Source: Candidatus Obscuribacteraceae bacterium (lineage in GTDB: Bacteria > Cyanobacteriota > Vampirovibrionia > Obscuribacterales > Obscuribacteraceae). Taken from it: a stretch of 64,000 nt of DNA. Made by a program: the position numbers. The DNA is taken from the NCBI GenBank assembly GCA_044226015.1, contig JBGAHS010000001.1:672001-736000 (forward strand), in the 5' to 3' direction. Positions within the stretch are counted from its first letter, which is position 1. The number at the start of each line of letters is the position of its first letter. Shown here in pieces: positions 30,001 through 42,000 of this stretch.

Positions 30001-33000
30001 GATGATGGCTGGATCGGTCACGCATGGACAGCATCGCATGGTGACCCTCCGGGCAAGTATGAAATTAAGGTCTGGGTGAACGGAAAACTAGCCCACGATT
30101 TTCTATTCAATGTGGGGGAGCCGCCACAGCTGGAAAACAGCTCTAGAGATTGGTGATCAAGCCCTGTTAGCAGAATTTAGCTTTTTCATGGGAAAATTAC
30201 GAAACCGATGGGACAAACCCCAATTGTCCCACGCGTGTATATAACTTAAGCTGTGCTCATTCTTCCGGATTTCTCTCGTCCGAGTTGGCAAATGAGCAAA
30301 ATGAATCGCCGTTTCTTAATAGTTACAAGTTGTCTAATCTCCCTCGTCGCAGCAAGTGCGTCAAACTCAGCTAACGCAACAAAGCTGAATGCGCGTCCAC
30401 TGCCTTCAGAGCGAGAATTGAAAGATTTCGAAAATAGCCAGACTAGCGCGCCGACAGTGAGCCGCTTCTCTCGTCGCATGGACTATCGCGACGAAGAAAA
30501 GGCGAAGCAAGAAGCCGCTGAGCAGGCAAAGAAAGAAGCAGTCGAAAAGGCTGCTATGGCTGAAAAAGAGCACTTCGCTGCCGGCAAGAAAGCCCAGCAA
30601 GCTGCTTTGGAAGCTAACAATAACGGAGTCGCGATGGGTAAGGCCGGTCGTTGGACCGAGGCTATCCAGGCTCATGAGAAGGCTGTTCAGCTTGACCCAC
30701 AGAACAAGCAATACAGAATCAATCTGTCAGCTTGTCGCACAACATTCGGTCAAGCACGTTTGAACGCGAAAGATTTTGATGCAGCTTCTGGACTTTTCCG
30801 CAAAGCTCTTGCAGCGGCACCAGACAATGGTTTAGCGACCAAGCTTCTGAACGATACCTTGAAGAAGCAAGGCAAAGACCCGAGCTCAGTTGAAGAAAGA
30901 GTTTCTATAGGTGACCAGCTCATGGCTGTTCGTGATGTAGAAGCTGCACTTGTTGAATACCAAACAGCGCTTCAACTTGAATCATCCGCTCGCACTTTCA
31001 CAAAAATGGGTGATGTTGCTCTTCACTGTGGTCAACTTTCAACAGCAGCTAACTGGTATCGTCAAGCTCTGAACAAAGATGCTAACTTCAGCTCAGCGCA
31101 CAGACAATTGGGCATGCTTCAACTGCAAGCTCAAGACAACACTGGTGCCGCAGCTTCACTTCGCAAGGCAGTTATTCTAGATTCAAAAGACAACGTTGCA
31201 GGTCAAGCTCTCGTTGAAATCTGGCGCCGTCAAGTCGCGACAAATCCACTTCTTGCTGAAAATCATCTTGGTCTAGCAGGCGCACTGCAGTTGACCGGCG
31301 ACTTCCATGGTGCTGAAGATGAATACAACAAGCTCGCAACTCTAGAGCCAGGAAATCCTGGATTGCAAGCTGGACGTGCATCACTTCAACGCGCTAGACA
31401 GCATGCAGCTGCCGAAAAGCACAGAGCGGCTGCCGAAACTTTGTTCAACCAGGGACTGAAGCGTGAAGCTCTCGCTGAAATTGGTCAAGCAGTCATGATT
31501 GAACCAAAGAATGCTCGTTATCAATTCCTTTTGGGTGAATGCCTCGAAGCAAATGGTGACCTCCGTGGTGCTCACCAGGCTTACATGACTTGTGTACTCA
31601 TCGACCCAGAAAAGAACCAGGAAGCTGCTTACCGCATGAAGGAAATGCAGCGTGGTTCTGGAAACAACATGCCTGTGCAACAAGCTCGCATGCCACAAGC
31701 ACCGATGCAAATGCAACAAGCTCCAATGCAGATGCAGCAAGCTCCAGTGCAAATGCAACAAGCACCGATGCAAATGCAACAAGCTCCAATGCAAATGCAA
31801 CAAGCTCAGGCTCCACAAGTTCAAAAGAATATGTTTGAAGGTGGCAATGGCATCGCCAATGTAGCTAACACTCAAATGGGTTTTAGCACTCACGGTGATG
31901 AATCGCGTATGCCAGCTCCGCAACAGCTTGCAGCTGTTCCGCAAATGCAGCAGGCAGCTCCAGTTCAAGCTCCAGTACAAGCTCCAGTTCAAGCAGCAGC
32001 GCAAGCACCTATCGGAAGTCAGATTGACCCAGCGCTTGCTCAAAAGTTGAACGAGCTCGAAGCAGCCAGAGACCATGAATCAGCAGTTGGCTTGCTGCGT
32101 CAAGTTCTCACTCAGAACCTGCAGAATCCAGATATTCACCACAAACTGGCTGTGAATCTGTTGGCTGCAGGCAACGTGACAGAAGCAATCTCTGAGTTCC
32201 GAATTGCATCGGCACTTCGCCCAGGCAACAAGGAGTTCGCAATCGACCTTGCAAGAGCAATGGAAATACACAAACGTTCCCAGGAAAGCGCGAATGAAGA
32301 GCAAGTTCCAGCAGCATCAGGAAAAGAGGTAGCCGTTAAATGAGCTTCTATTTCCAACCCCCAGATCTAGCTGAATTCCCGAGACGTTCGTACAGAAAGT
32401 TTCTCGAAGAAACAATTGGCAAGCTTTTCACTGAAATTTCGCCAATTGGCAGTGAGTTCAACAACCGTTTCGAAATCTCTTTCATCGGCACCGATGGAAA
32501 GGCTCACTGGAAGTTCGAAGACTACGGCATCGACTCCGGCTACCCAACATCGGCTGAACATGCTCGCAAATCTAACATGACGCATGCTCGCAGATTGCTC
32601 ATGGACATCTGGCTTCGCGATACTCAGACTGGCGTACTGAGAAAGACCACCGCTTACATGGGTGACGTTCCAGTAATTACCGACCGCGGAACCTTCGTCA
32701 TCAACGGTTCTGAGCGTGTCGTCCTTGGACAGTTGGTTCGTGCTCCTGGCGTATACTTCTCCAACCCAGACAATCAAATCTACAAAGCTTTGATTCTTGG
32801 TGAACTTGGCGCTCCAATTTCTTTTGAACTCGACCTCGAGACCGGAACAGGCAAAACCAGCCGCGCTAAGTGCCGCATCAAGTTGCCAAAGCGTGGATGG
32901 GTTTCAGCTGTAACCGTTTTGACAGCAATGGGCGTTGATTGGGATACATTGCAAAAGCGCATCTTCCCTTTGCTCAACAAGCATCGCATTGAGTACAAAC

Positions 33001-39000: not shown

Positions 39001-42000
39001 AAAGCCGCTAGTCTATATGCTCTCGCCCATGGCGCGTGGTATGGTAGCAAGTTCAGAGTGCGAGATGGACCTATCAGATACTGATGTTCAGCGCCACTTG
39101 CTTGAAGTAGCAAATTTGCGCATGATATTTTTGACAGACCAGAAAGCTGGACTCATCACCGAGTTTCACTGGACAACTGTACCGAGCGTGAGTTCACTGG
39201 CAACTATTTGTGCGACAGTTTCTTTCAACAGAAACGGCAGAGTTCATAGAGCCGCTGTGATCAACAACTTTGGCATCGCCGCAGACAGCGCGCGTGAGGC
39301 TGCAGAAAAAGCTATCGCAGATGGAAGCTCAGATATGATCTGGATAATTTCTTCTGATGAAGCTCAGCAAGAAACTCTGCAACAAGCTCTTAGCAGTTCG
39401 AATATTGCAAACAGAATTGCATTCACTACTCACCAGGAAATATACAAAGCTGGTGTTGTTAAAGCAAAATGGCAGAGTGCAAGCAAAGCTTATGCTCCCG
39501 TTATTGCCGAATCTGTCGTCGTGGCACACACCAATATGGCTTGGAATCCAAGCATGGCAACTCCAGCCTGAGCGAGATCGGCTGAAATCCTTTCCAGCAC
39601 TATGTTGGAACCCTGAGTATATTGAAAGAGCGATGTATCCCATCGCTCTTTTTTGCTAAGATTGCCAATAACATGGATCATAATCGGGAAATTGAGGCAG
39701 ATGAGGTTCGCGGCGAGACCGTCGTGAGCCCTCCTGAGGATCTGGCAAAGGTCGAGCACTCTGCTTCTCAGCCAAGTGCTGTAGATGCCAGAGCAAACAC
39801 CGATAGATCTGGTCAAAAACTTTCTGAAGAACTTCTAGACGCCCCCCTTGTACATGGTGGGCTCTGGAAAGCGATCTGGCTAATGTCCTGGCCGCTTTTA
39901 ATCAGCACTGTTGCCACGTCCATTGTTGGAGCAATTGATGTCCAGGTTTCCGGCTACCTGGGCAAAGAAGCGCAGGCTGCTGTGGGCATCGCAGAGCACG
40001 TGCTTTTCCTCTTTATGGTGTTCATCTTCTCTGTCAGTGTAGGCACCACGGCCATTGTTTCACGAGAGTTCGGCGAGGGAAATCTTGCTGGTACCATTGA
40101 TGGTGCCAGTCAATCGATTCAGCTTTCAGTTAGCAGTGGGTTTGTTCTTGCCTTAGCTGCCCTTTGTTTTGCCCATGTTTTGTTGCCATTCTTGAGCAAA
40201 GACCCTGAGATAATTCAGCTAGGCTCTACCTATCTGTCTATATTTAGCCTTTACATGGTACCTTTCAGTTTAATTTGCATTATCAATTCAGCCTTTCGTG
40301 CAATTGGTGATTCCAAAACGCCTCTATTTATTGTTCTGTTCGAGGTGATTGCCAACATTTTTGGTGACTATGCGGTTGTGTTGTGGAACTGGCCGGTTCC
40401 AGGTTTAGGTTTACGTGGTATCGCTGGGGCTGCGGTTGTATCCGCATTTATAGCTGCAGTGGTATCACTGGTGATGATTCGCCGATCACCTTTGCGTGAG
40501 GCACTGACATTGAATCGCCTCGGAAAATTTGATTGGAGCTGGCAAAAACGAATCTTGAAGATAGGCTTGCCTTCTGCAATTCAGCGGCTCGGCTGGGCGG
40601 GTAGCGTCTTTGCAGTTTTCTTCATTCTGGCTCAATTAAAAGAAAGTACTGCTGCTCTGGCCTCATGGACTATTGGAATGAGAATTGAGGCTTTACTTTT
40701 CATGCCACTAATGGCTTTTTCGCTTGCGGTCTCATCGATAGTAGGGCAAAATCTTGGTGCAGGTAAGCCAGAAAGAGCAATAAAAGCTGGTTGGAACGTC
40801 ACTCTCATTGGAGTGATTTCCATGTTTATTCTAGCCGCTGGCATGTATTTGCTGGCAGATCCTATTGCGCATTCCATGAGTCAAGATGCAAAAACAATTT
40901 CATTTGCGGCAGATTACATGCGAATAAATGCCATGGGCGAGCCATTCCTTGCCGTAGCTATGGTACTCATGGGTGCTATGCAAGGTGCTGGTGATACGAA
41001 GATTCCAATGTGGATTTCCTTGTTCTGCAATTGGGTGGTGCGTTTGCCTCTTGCCTGGTGGCTGGCGCTTAATTGCAAGCTAGAAACAAATGGTGTCTGG
41101 TACGCGATGATCAGTTCTGTCTTAGCCTGCGCGATTCTCTGTACTGTCAGATATCAATCGAAGCAGTGGCTCAAGGTGAAAATTTGAGCTTTTGCTCATT
41201 CAGAAAAGCGCGGATGTCAGAGACCTCTTTGCGGTGCATGTCATCAAATTCTGCCGGTTTTTCTTTCACCCATTTTTCGGCTCCTTGTAAGTACATTTCT
41301 GCTTCGCTTATTTTGTTGTTTGCCACCAGCAGGCGCACTAATTTGCCGGCAATATTTGATGCGCTGCCAGGACTTGCTACGGTTGGCGGCAATTGCTCAA
41401 TTTGTTGGAACGCTGTTTTCAATTCATCAACAGCATCCTCTGATTTACCAGCGCGGAAGGATATTTCACTCAAAGTATCTAACAAGTTGATTTTGTCTAT
41501 TCCTTCTGTTTTTGGATCTTTGTTGATGGTGGCAATCTCCTTCTTTGTAGCGAGATAGAGTTTATCGAACTCATGGAATTTCTTGAAATGCAATTCTGTC
41601 TCTAGTTCCGCAAGATGAAGTACTGCGGTGTCGACCTGACGGTCAGCCCCGCTCTCTAACTCTACGTAGTGTTTTACAGCCTCGAGAAATCTTCTGCTTT
41701 TGAATTCTGTCTTGTCCGAGAGAAGATCTAGAGTTGTGGAATGAATTTGCCATGCCATGCTATGCAGGCTGCCCTCACTGCCAACAATCGTCACAAGGTG
41801 GTATGAAATTTCTGAGCCCTCACCTTGCTTAAAGAACTCGTTATCATAATTCATCATGATAAAAACTTGACCAGGGTCGAAGCTTCCTTTTTTCGGAGTC
41901 AGACCCTCAACGATGCTGCTGACGCCTCTGAGAATAGCGAGGTCTTGATGAGCAAATTCATTGCTTTTATGATTATTTGGATACTCTGTTCCTAACAAAT

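Follow-up and report, generated by a model that had tools for sequence, protein, structure and literature searches.

A divergent, order-specific RNA polymerase beta subunit suggests a second kind of RNA polymerase in Obscuribacterales

Introduction

The prevailing view gives bacteria a single RNA polymerase (RNAP) core, with sigma factors switching between programmes. Multisubunit RNAPs of jumbo phages contain divergent beta-like subunits together with their own beta-prime-like subunits and promoter-specificity factor. The plant RNA polymerases IV and V possess duplicated catalytic subunits that diverged fast and were then stable, and hold their other subunits in common with the parent enzyme. 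The exceptions that we found in print among bacteria are near-identical, rifamycin-resistant rpoB duplicates of actinomycetes, described in the available text of PMC5431353. In Nocardia farcinica (RpoB2) and Nonomuraea gerenzanensis (RpoB(R)), two rpoB genes accompany one set of the other subunits; the duplicates carry H526N and other changes in the rifampicin and fork region, and a global transcriptional switch has been proposed (PMC5431353). RpoB(R) differs from its paralogue by a six-residue deletion and five substitutions (PMC5431353), and the Nocardia pair is 85.9% identical. PF13814 corresponds to MobC, and MOBC relaxases form mobile conjugation modules with VirD4 and VirB4, as outlined in the available part of PMC5357655.

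Here we describe a second rpoB gene, rpoB2, in a 64,000-nucleotide stretch of a Candidatus Obscuribacteraceae genome (the window). Its product resembles cyanobacterial-type RpoB (PDB 8SYI, 8GZG and 9DVS) in domain order, predicted fold, most active-centre residues and the lack of the large proteobacterial insertions. Unlike canonical RpoB, encoded in the rpoB–rpoC operon, it is the product of an additional gene, and the changes that it carries at near-universal sites are fixed and unique to it. It shares with the actinomycete duplicates the single set of other subunits and the changed rifampicin and fork region, but it keeps H526, occurs order-wide and is tied to the regulon of a type IV secretion system (T4SS). 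Jumbo-phage RNAPs are far more divergent, whereas RpoB2 lacks a beta-prime-like partner and branches within its host class. The likeness to plant Pol IV and V is at this level analogy, not homology: those enzymes are eukaryotic, have both large subunits duplicated and serve RNA silencing. No literature on a divergent, order-wide second RpoB was found in searches aimed at it within a library that covers a minority of subscription journals. The newness lies in the system, not in the protein family.

Results

A second beta subunit without partner subunits of its own

The genome-wide survey's note had reported a second full-length rpoB about 42% identical to the genome's own RpoB, and the open reading frame (Table 1), its domains and its scores bear this out. 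All six Rpb2 Pfam domains match in order, the N-terminal PF04563 at 26.9 bits being slightly below its cut-off of 28.2, and the NCBIfam rpoB model scores 1,035 bits against a cut-off of 801. A tblastn search of the genome found two rpoB loci, 41.7% identical over 1,067 aa; identity to every canonical copy compared is 41–45%. The gene lies on the same 1.39-Mb contig as canonical rpoB, rpoC1 and rpoC2, 600 kb from them and outside the rpoB–rpoC operon, and its GC content resembles that of the genome. An AlphaFold model of the isolated chain, built from a mixed alignment, has a pLDDT of 72 and a pTM of 0.63, with active-site loops of low confidence; its top Foldseek matches are cyanobacterial beta subunits (TM 0.76–0.79), and RpoB2 is thus predicted to retain the beta fold. 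A recent, near-identical duplicate of the actinomycete type is ruled out by the 41.7% identity and the retained H526.

Table 1 Features of the rpoB2 locus, numbered from the first base of the window
Feature	Position	Strand	Description
Tandem operator-like boxes	30189..30222	+	First box TGGGA-N4-TACG, second box TGGGA-N4-YCCCA 20 bases further along; both precede the operon
Minus-10-like hexamer TAAGCT	30247..30252	+	24 bases past the second box; position and sequence conserved in aligned upstream regions
TPR protein	30292..32343	+	683 aa from ATG; Pfam TPR families; signal-peptide-like N-terminus
rpoB2	32340-36179	+	1279 aa ORF: beta subunit, residues 1 to ~1057, plus variable acidic tail of ~220 aa
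g05370 (g70)	36186..37901	+	Exported or membrane protein; Gly-rich middle, conserved two-helix membrane segment (18-homologue alignment)
g05371 (g71)	37988..38722	+	Helical, signal-peptide-like protein
g05372 (g72)	38795..39571	+	Paralogue of the Replic_Relax (MOBC-like) protein found in the order; cytoplasmic

The same genome was searched for partner subunits. PF00623, PF04997 and PF04998 match only the canonical rpoC1 and rpoC2, and PF01000 (alpha) gives one match above cut-off and one sub-threshold match at E 0.45. A scan for DxDGD-type catalytic loops returned one real site, in RpoC1, the other match being in a 75-residue frame. These searches agree with the earlier claim that there is no second beta-prime or alpha. 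Because only one set of each exists, any polymerase role of RpoB2 must use the cell's own alpha and beta-prime. A multisubunit RNAP of a phage or mobile element was rejected, as no second beta-prime domain or catalytic loop was found and the mixture-model tree (below) places RpoB2 inside Vampirovibrionia.

Distribution and selection

Among the matches listed, an rpoB2 orthologue at 69% identity or more is present in at least 86 of 100 genomes of the order (completeness at least 70%, G000 included; 53 lower-scoring matches lie outside those listed), and both families of the order possess it. No full-length orthologue was found among the matches listed in 118 other Vampirovibrionia (28 weak matches lie outside these) or in 73 genomes of other classes. 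Among the best 150 matches to RpoB2 in a library of representatives at 50% identity, two reach 79–80% and the remaining 148 do not exceed 47%. Three assemblies, G015 (94% complete), G021 (88%) and G161 (85%), show neither rpoB2 nor an orthologue of the TPR protein or g71; g72 was not found in G015 and G021, the two searched for it. Of the survey's description of the gene as fixed and order-specific, the second term stands, and 'fixed' is slightly too strong in view of these three assemblies.

A site-mixture tree puts rpoB2 among the Vampirovibrionia, where its stem is very long (3.75 changes per site); FastTree instead places it at the base of the phylum. The gene is under strong purifying selection: dN/dS is 0.010–0.088 in 14 of 15 pairs, one pair being saturated, compared with 0.032–0.051 in four pairs of canonical rpoB, and dN is approximately 1.9 times the canonical rate. 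These data bear on whether the gene is an artefact (a contaminant, a prophage gene or a pseudogene in decay). Every genome is an assembly of uncultured cells; among 48 loci from 43 genomes, 2 carry a frameshifted reading frame and one is cut by a contig end. Against this, rpoB2 lies on the contig of the canonical operon, has a GC content like that of the genome and is syntenic across the order, and the distribution and dN/dS refute such an origin, which we regard as hardly conceivable.

Conserved catalytic side and rewritten surfaces

Thirty-six rpoB2 copies were compared with 219 other RpoBs (E. coli numbering). RpoB2 retains 121 of the 134 near-universal positions (at least 95% identical across the 219), and all 36 copies keep R678, Q688, E813, D814, K1065, K1073 and R1106, as well as R1269, E1272, E1274 and two residues that we take to bind alpha, D1084 and G1215. 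The reading of rpoB2 as a conserved paralogue that is specific to the order and keeps its catalytic-side motifs is supported, and the motif changes noted earlier likewise hold in the 36 copies. H1237Q, H1244N, N684G and K900E occur in all 36 copies and in none of the 219 others; positions 1237/1240/1241 read Q/L/H and positions 684 and 686 read G and M in every copy, P540 is present in 34, and P1320 is also altered. H1237, invariant in 219/219 other RpoBs, contacts the primer phosphate alongside K1065 and K1073, according to the available text of bioRxiv 2021.04.06.438613. With H1237, H1244, N684, Q686 and P1320 altered, the activity of RpoB2 may be weak or absent.

The rewriting extends over the lobe, protrusion, flap and clamp, and the alignment supports the survey's view that it is clade-wide in the rifampicin pocket, in fork loop 2, at the flap tip and among the residues that contact RNA. 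When rpoB2 copies are compared with one another, identity is 0.96 for the rifampicin pocket and fork loop 2, 0.89 for the flap and 0.92 for switch 3; to the canonical paralogue it is 0.47–0.62 in these regions. This pattern in the alignments indicates regions frozen in a new state and points to a new function rather than decay. In the C-terminal clamp segment, identity to the canonical copy is just 27%, a divergence that could impair assembly with beta-prime.

Alternatively, RpoB2 may be a crippled or non-catalytic decoy: when induced, it would titrate the alpha and beta-prime subunits, or else a transcription factor, and so halt housekeeping transcription during the T4SS programme. The substitutions unique to RpoB2, together with a median of 12 changed near-universal sites (range 9–14) compared with 1 in other RpoBs and the retention of D1084 and G1215, are compatible with it. 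A decoy need not, however, keep E813, D814, R678, R1106, K1065 and K1073 all invariant across a stem of 3.75 changes per site, and 3 of 148 diverse library proteins differ at 17–19 universal sites, more than any rpoB2, so the load alone is no proof of inactivity. We consider a decoy unlikely.

The substitutions S531T, L533F, R540P, Q510P, I572V and S574Y alter the rifampicin pocket, and could mark an inhibitor-proof backup beta, protecting against rifamycins, other RNAP antibiotics or phage inhibitors, its T4SS neighbourhood being incidental stress co-regulation; duplicated rpoB genes have a resistance role in Nocardia and Nonomuraea (PMC5431353, available text). Yet Q513, D516 and H526 are kept in 36/36 copies, with no H526N-type substitution; the Nocardia pair is about twice as similar as the pair described here; the changes reach well beyond the pocket; and the operon and its promoter box tie rpoB2 to the T4SS. 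Resistance as the primary role is quite improbable.

An operon with a relaxase paralogue

The gene order TPR–rpoB2–g70–g71–g72 proposed earlier recurs in 20 wide loci, where the TPR gene is present in 20, g71 and g72 in 19 each, and g70 was matched in 17; the twentieth locus, which has no g71 or g72, is a 4.5-kb contig. The TPR stop codon overlaps the rpoB2 start, by 4 bases in 12 of 15 plus-strand loci. Hydrophobic N-terminal segments occur in 18 of 21 homologues of the TPR protein, 17 of 18 of g05370 and 17 of 20 of g05371. These three proteins appear from sequence to be exported, leaving g05372 as the only other cytoplasmic protein of the operon besides RpoB2. Exported-looking neighbours are an odd setting for a cytoplasmic enzyme, which tells against RpoB2 as an alternative beta subunit.

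Neither g05370 nor g05371 matches a Pfam or NCBIfam family, and Atlas matches of g05371 remain below 0.9. The C-terminal part of g05370 resembles a VirB2/TrbC-type pilin by eye only, with no match to pilin-family profiles. Paralogues occur elsewhere in the genome: that of the TPR protein adjoins a second VirB4-like cluster, that of the g05370 N-terminal part lies inside a chromosomal T4SS cluster on contig C10, and g05371 has a weak one.

The g05372 protein has a nearly invariant N-terminal segment of 110 aa and a degenerate, nuclease-like C-terminal domain. It has no direct PF13814 match; hhalign aligns it over 224 columns with the PF13814 protein encoded beside VirD4/VirB4 (probability 92%, E 5e-7), covering the winged-helix and nuclease-fold length, and Atlas places it in the Replic_Relax cluster (0.93). 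Matches to restriction-endonuclease folds are weak, none reaching E 0.001. In an alignment of 29 sequences the relaxase family conserves D and E-x-D; the E-x-D columns align with I/V-N-H/N in g05372, where the commonest letters are not acidic, and the motif D is present in 12 of 19 copies. Paralogy to the relaxase, as the survey had it, is thereby upheld, but the missing acidic motif argues against an active relaxase: g05372 is probably nuclease-dead. It is found in 29 of 30 genomes of the family, with no strong match in 118 others. It tracks rpoB2, as would suit an alternative beta subunit.

A promoter box in common with a type IV secretion system

Upstream of the operon, the core of the second box is present in 20/20 regions and that of the first in 17/20. 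The two-box pattern occurs in 29 of 30 genomes of the family, in 0/2 of the second family and in 0/118 outside the order, and reversed-pattern controls gave 0. Judged by its spacing, TAAGCT may be a sigma-70-type −10 element combined with an activator site of class II. The promoter of the operon itself thus resembles an ordinary activated one, so it does not define a promoter class specific to RpoB2.

The box also lies upstream of a gene, specific to the order, for a 78-aa protein and of genes of the C10 cluster, a conserved chromosomal VirB4/VirD4/MOBC-like T4SS. It is not enriched genome-wide (13 exact copies, compared with 7 and 11 in shuffles), and in a scan for box plus −10 only the top three sites (27.7, 25.1 and 24.7) exceed the shuffled maxima of 22.4–24.5. 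The C10 cluster, presumably co-regulated through the box, encodes PF13814, VirD4-like and VirB4-like proteins and is syntenic, with core genes 50–88% conserved across the order; unlike mobile MOBC modules, it stays in place, and a dead relaxase paralogue shares an operon with an RNAP subunit. The 78-aa gene and the relaxase remain in two assemblies without the rpoB2 operon. The link between operon and T4SS asserted in the survey's note is corroborated by the g05372–PF13814 alignment, the g70 paralogue within the cluster and the common box.

Discussion

The presence and distribution of rpoB2, the selection on it, its pattern of residues, its lack of partners, the common promoter box and the paralogies lead us to infer how RpoB2 may be induced, assembled and used in catalysis, what g05372 may do and what the targets may be. 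We give a probability of roughly 0.5 to RpoB2 being an alternative beta subunit that is inducible and catalytically competent and uses the shared alpha and beta-prime. A dimeric regulator would bind the TGGGA-N4-TCCCA-type boxes and turn on the operon, the chromosomal conjugation-type T4SS and the 78-aa protein together. RpoB2 would then join alpha, RpoC1 and RpoC2, of which the cell has one set, to form a second RNAP core. In it the nucleotide-addition side would be kept and the surfaces meeting sigma, the non-template strand, the initiating nucleotide and CarD/Mfd would be rewritten. Owing to these rewritten surfaces initiation by such a core should differ, probably through a dedicated factor, for which the nuclease-dead relaxase paralogue g05372 would be the best candidate. 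The second core would serve the T4SS programme, with late genes of that programme or the DNA processed by the system as its targets. In the available text of PMC4499132, the substitution W183A leaves the elongation rate unchanged and destabilises promoter complexes, a phenotype that fits altered initiation with elongation kept. The retained active-centre residues, low dN/dS, frozen rewritten regions, single partner set and common box also favour this reading. Against it count the altered near-universal residues, the divergent clamp segment, the exported-looking neighbours, the lack of genome-wide box enrichment, the ordinary promoter, and the persistence of the 78-aa gene and the relaxase where the operon is missing.

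RpoB2 might instead be a cargo of the T4SS, with g05372 as adaptor to the coupling protein VirD4, joining alpha and beta-prime of a recipient (kin or prey) to transcribe or prime transferred DNA or to hijack the host. The box in common with the VirB4/VirD4/MOBC-like cluster, a full-length relaxase paralogue lacking the nuclease motif, and a variable acidic tail on a protein encoded among exported ones would accord with this, and Vampirovibrio, of the same class, has been proposed to use a T4SS on prey, albeit a different, plasmid-borne T type (PMC4451040, available text). The canonical RpoB of the order is acidic-tailed as well, however, so the tail is no export signal, and apart from the two library matches at 79–80%, RpoB2 is not close to the RpoB of any possible host (47% or less among the best 150). 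Delivery as cargo is rather unlikely. A bolder version, which we hold to be equally doubtful, is that Obscuribacterales domesticated a conjugation machine in which RpoB2, guided or carried by the nuclease-dead relaxase paralogue in place of sigma, transcribes or primes DNA moved by the T4SS, possibly after delivery and assembly in a recipient.

The rpoB2 gene suggests a second kind of RNA polymerase in Obscuribacterales: a beta paralogue changed beyond the distance between phyla and then froze. If it serves the T4SS, the core itself would have been specialised, which would be a different kind of regulation, and a dedicated T4SS polymerase, if true, would be the first bacterial counterpart of the specialised eukaryotic polymerases, with a relaxase turned transcription factor. 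RpoB2 further provides a natural experiment in changing sites regarded as invariant (H1237, H1244, N684, W183, fork loop 2 and the flap tip). The proposed role is directly testable, because in vitro reconstitution of every subunit requires no culture of the organism, and rpoB2 offers a handle on how this common, non-photosynthetic lineage related to cyanobacteria lives.

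The second rpoB gene and the other polymerase genes

The genome under study (G000; assembly of 8.19 Mb in 13 contigs, completeness 92%) contains exactly two rpoB loci, both on one contig, with products 41.7% identical over 1067 residues, in line with the genome-wide survey's note, which had put the second copy, rpoB2, at about 42% identity to the cell's own RpoB. The canonical copy is part of an rpoB–rpoC1–rpoC2 operon, which is all that the three β′ families match in profile searches of G000, and the α family has a single match above its cut-off, so that the claim that neither subunit has a second gene held. 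A hidden second β′ or α was also sought with a catalytic-loop scan of all six-frame ORFs of G000, which returned RpoC1 and one match in a short frame; neither the scan nor the family searches revealed one. GC content across the rpoB2 operon is 0.48–0.51, against about 0.47 elsewhere. Matches to sigma-70 region 2 number 17 over several contigs of G000, nine of them strong and in frames of 326–414 aa, an indication that group 1/2-like sigma factors have expanded.

Among known cases the duplicated rpoB of actinomycetes comes closest. The two Nocardia copies, however, share 85.9% identity, a closeness that Obscuribacterales rpoB2 does not show, and the Nonomuraea copies, which are distinguished by one deletion and five substitutions, H526N included (PMC5431353), differ from rpoB2 in that H526N is missing from the latter.

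Features of the rpoB2 operon region, its promoter-sharing gene and the secretion clusters
Feature	Position	Strand	Description
rpoB2	window 32340–36179	+	ORF of 1279 aa; all six Pfam Rpb2 domains matched, NCBIfam rpoB cut-off passed
Repeat protein, 1230 aa	window 25529–29221	−	internal repeats; C-terminal domain with at least 8 paralogous matches in G000; without Pfam match
78-aa protein gene	G000:C11:510453–510689; L178:1181–1417	− (G000)	two-box promoter
Order-wide chromosomal T4SS cluster	G000:C10:63035–90085 (L124–L125)	−	MOBC-like relaxase, VirD4-like, VirB4-like
Second VirB4-like cluster	G000:C1:182285–207800 (L127–L128)		TadE-like gene, 1349-aa protein, TPR paralogue

Distribution and origin

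Of 100 order genomes with a completeness of 70% or more, a set that contains G000, an rpoB2 match of at least 69% identity is present in 86, a count that leaves 53 weaker matches aside; several of the other 14 genomes are fragmented. The assignment to the order follows the note and the source labels of homologues of a co-regulated gene. The second family of the order has rpoB2 in 1 of 3 genomes. No full-length orthologue was found in 118 other Vampirovibrionia genomes (28 weak matches left aside) or in 73 genomes of other classes, and among 1.84 billion representatives two of the best 150 proteins are 79–80% identical to rpoB2 and the remaining 148 reach 47% at most. Frameshifts interrupt the ORF at 2 of 48 loci (43 genomes), and searches of three order assemblies found no rpoB2, TPR orthologue or g71, the last two being genes of the same operon. 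The order-specificity proposed by the note therefore stands, whereas 'fixed' has to give way to 'nearly fixed', the fair wording in view of these three assemblies and the frameshifted loci. Set beside this distribution, the chance that rpoB2 is an artefact is negligible. One genome, G160 (contamination 8%), has two full-length copies, on its contigs C21 and C50, 77% and 73% identical to the query, which may be a binning effect. Vampirovibrionia RpoB was analysed by Oliver et al. (2021) in an article in whose main text 'Obscuribacter' is absent (PMC8047818), and a literature search mostly outside subscription journals found no work on Obscuribacterales with rpoB.

In a FastTree phylogeny of 58 sequences rpoB2 branches off basally in the phylum on a stem of 1.37, a position that we read as long-branch attraction. 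A quick search under a site-mixture model with 26 of the 58 sequences placed it inside the Vampirovibrionia (SH-aLRT 100, stem 3.75), and when it was constrained to group with the canonical RpoB of the order, the likelihood improved by 2.5 log units, a placement that was not rejected (p-AU 0.605). With this move of the basal position into the class, a horizontal origin was rejected; the simplest reading is that the gene was duplicated inside the class and then changed in a burst. Since that burst rpoB2 has been conserved under strong selection, with dN/dS of 0.010–0.088 in 14 of 15 pairs within rpoB2, the remaining pair being saturated, and a dN about 1.9 times that of canonical RpoB in 36 matched genome pairs.

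Conserved and rewritten regions of RpoB2

Residues were compared, in E. coli RpoB numbering, in an alignment of 36 rpoB2 products from 36 genomes with 71 RpoBs of the canonical kind and 148 diverse ones. Duplicates, four close relatives and three copies that are split or cut were kept out of the rpoB2 set. RpoB2 has kept 121 and lost 10 of 134 near-universal positions. Unchanged in all 36 copies are R151, D446, R451, Q513, D516, H526, R529, R678, Q688, E813, D814, K1065, K1073, D1084, R1106, G1215, K1242, R1246, R1269, E1272 and E1274; the roles of E813, D814, R678, R1106, D1084, G1215, the gate loop and residues 117–119 belong to the general background on bacterial RNA polymerase. Four changes, N684G, K900E, H1237Q and H1244N, are fixed in RpoB2 and occur in none of 219 other RpoBs, and they are accompanied by W183P, Q510P, S531T, L533F, R540P, R542A, Q686M, R903Q, K909V, D1240L, D1241H, P1320T and a two-residue insertion after R1246. 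Inside the RpoB2 clade these rewritten stretches belong to the most conserved parts of the protein (identity 0.89–0.96), whereas their identity to the canonical paralogue is only 0.47–0.62.

The pocket for the non-template strand consists of W183, D446 and fork loop 2; the W183A substitution destabilizes promoter complexes with no slowing of elongation (PMC4499132). H1237 contacts the primer phosphate together with K1065 and K1073 (bioRxiv 2021.04.06.438613), lines the nucleic-acid channel with H1244 (PMC4042587) and contacts initiating NAD with D516 (PMC5737558). The flap tip binds sigma region 4, and lobe 1 binds CarD and Mfd (PMC5101437). The loss of W183, R180, R371 and R542 prompted the idea of a single-stranded-DNA polymerase, which is not singled out because RpoB2 retains R151, D446 and R451 of the +2G pocket. 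As modelled by AlphaFold (pLDDT 72), residues 1–1067 best match cyanobacterial β subunits (TM 0.76–0.79). Canonical RpoB of the order has a variable acidic C-terminal tail, of 105–253 aa in three copies (L001:4319–7837, L053 and L057), and rpoB2 frames reach about 1640 aa because of longer tails.

Because the catalytic side of RpoB2 appears intact, its surfaces for sigma, non-template DNA, the initiating nucleotide and accessory factors appear fixed in a new state and it has no private β′, we favour, with a probability of about one half, an inducible alternative β that would draw on the cell's shared α and β′ and serve a type IV secretion (T4SS) programme, with the product of operon gene g72 as a candidate specificity factor. 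Assembly, catalysis, expression and binding partners of RpoB2 are all things that we infer. With the same kept and altered residues in view, a decoy that shuts down housekeeping transcription seems quite unlikely, and an inhibitor-proof backup β highly improbable.

Operon structure and g72

The gene order TPR–rpoB2–g70–g71–g72 (g05370, g05371 and g05372 for the last three) is kept over 20 wide loci, as expected of the conserved operon described in the note, and in 12 of the 15 loci on the plus strand the stop of TPR and the start of rpoB2 overlap. A hydrophobic N-terminus is present in homologues of TPR (18 of 21), g70 (17 of 18) and g71 (17 of 20), and in none of 20 g72 or 36 RpoB2 proteins. 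Fold and family searches with g71 returned nothing convincing. At window 36500–37250, g05370 has a Gly-rich tandem expansion in G000 and two relatives, and a short conserved domain in others. Three RNA runs (word shares 0.06–0.10) compared with window 24000–43300 gave short, near-identical pieces in rpoB2, g70, g71 and g72; these are not taken as transcription, since the runs, available as contigs only and without a DNA control, were picked with the operon itself and foreign rpoB piles up on conserved motifs.

The g72 gene occurs in 29 of 30 family genomes, with no strong match in the 118 others. Its product aligns over its full length with the PF13814 protein of the T4SS cluster on contig C10 (probability 92%, E 5e-7), which bears out its description as a relaxase paralogue; PF13814 corresponds to the MobC relaxase superfamily (PMC5357655). 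An E-x-D motif kept by the C10 protein across 29 sequences is absent from g72, the N-terminal domain of which is nearly invariant and is modelled with low confidence. A predicted complex of RpoB2 1–885 with g05372 1–114 (score 0.00, mark 0.32) speaks neither for nor against binding. Rather than directing an RpoB2 core, g72 might act as the adaptor for export of RpoB2 through the T4SS, a reading that we consider unlikely; the acidic tail was rejected as evidence of an export signal because canonical RpoB has one too.

A shared two-box promoter

Upstream of TPR, TGGGA-N4-TACG is followed about two helical turns on by TGGGA-N4-YCCCA, with a TAAGCT hexamer 24 bases beyond this second box. The exact two-box pattern was found in 29 of 30 family genomes, in 0 of 2 from the second family, in 0 of 118 outside the order and in no reversed control. 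The pattern occurs a second time in G000 and at five further loci, ahead of the gene of a 78-aa protein. All 32 other order genomes encode this protein, with best matches 65–97% identical across the order, and none of 118 others does. Most upstream regions of its gene have boxes, the strict pattern in 11 of 28 and looser variants, judged by eye, in the rest. Family and fold searches gave nothing convincing for this protein beyond a faint RuvX/YqgF similarity (E 0.059); its gene shares a contig with canonical rpoB in several genomes. In four loci from two genera (L164, L166, L182 and L183) the promoter also lies ahead of other long genes of unknown family, and hence the regulon would have lineage-specific members.

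With at most one mismatch, the box also lies in the T4SS cluster: 7 of 9 genomes have it immediately before one gene, and 6 of 9 just before a DUF2225-like/VirB3-like block. Of the 13 exact palindromes of G000, 3 precede genes of this 27-kb cluster, against an expectation of about 0.04 by a hand estimate chosen after seeing the data. Two results speak against the shared box: the palindrome shows no enrichment over the whole genome (13 exact copies, versus 7 and 11 in shuffles), and a scan for box plus −10 element gave 22 sites, versus 17–24 in shuffles; the top three alone exceed all shuffled maxima, the first lying in the T4SS cluster and the third being that of the rpoB2 operon.

The T4SS of the order

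The C10 cluster also encodes small membrane proteins, a 142-aa pilin-like protein, a 1339-aa protein and g70 paralogues. Its PF13814 protein, which adjoins the VirD4-like and VirB4-like genes, occurs in 30 of the 32 other genomes of the order and in none of 118 outside. Of 11 regions fetched, 9 are syntenic for the cluster and the remaining two are short contig ends; relative to G000 VirB4 is 69–80% and the small pilin-like protein 82–88% identical. Because the cluster is order-wide, syntenic and well conserved, the order carries a vertically inherited, conjugation-type T4SS, unlike the T-type, partly plasmid-borne T4SS of Vampirovibrio (PMC4451040). Broader literature searches, mostly outside subscription journals, found neither a divergent second rpoB nor a C10-type T4SS in the material covered. 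In the second VirB4-like cluster, on C1, the genes checked had no box ahead of them; the VirB4-like gene of this cluster is split over two ORFs in the G000 assembly.

The link between operon and T4SS claimed by the note thus finds support in the paralogy of g72 with the cluster relaxase and in the promoter box. An ordinary RpoB by family profile only, rpoB2 is a real, order-specific gene under strong selection, which paralogy and the common promoter box connect with a conjugation system that the order has domesticated.
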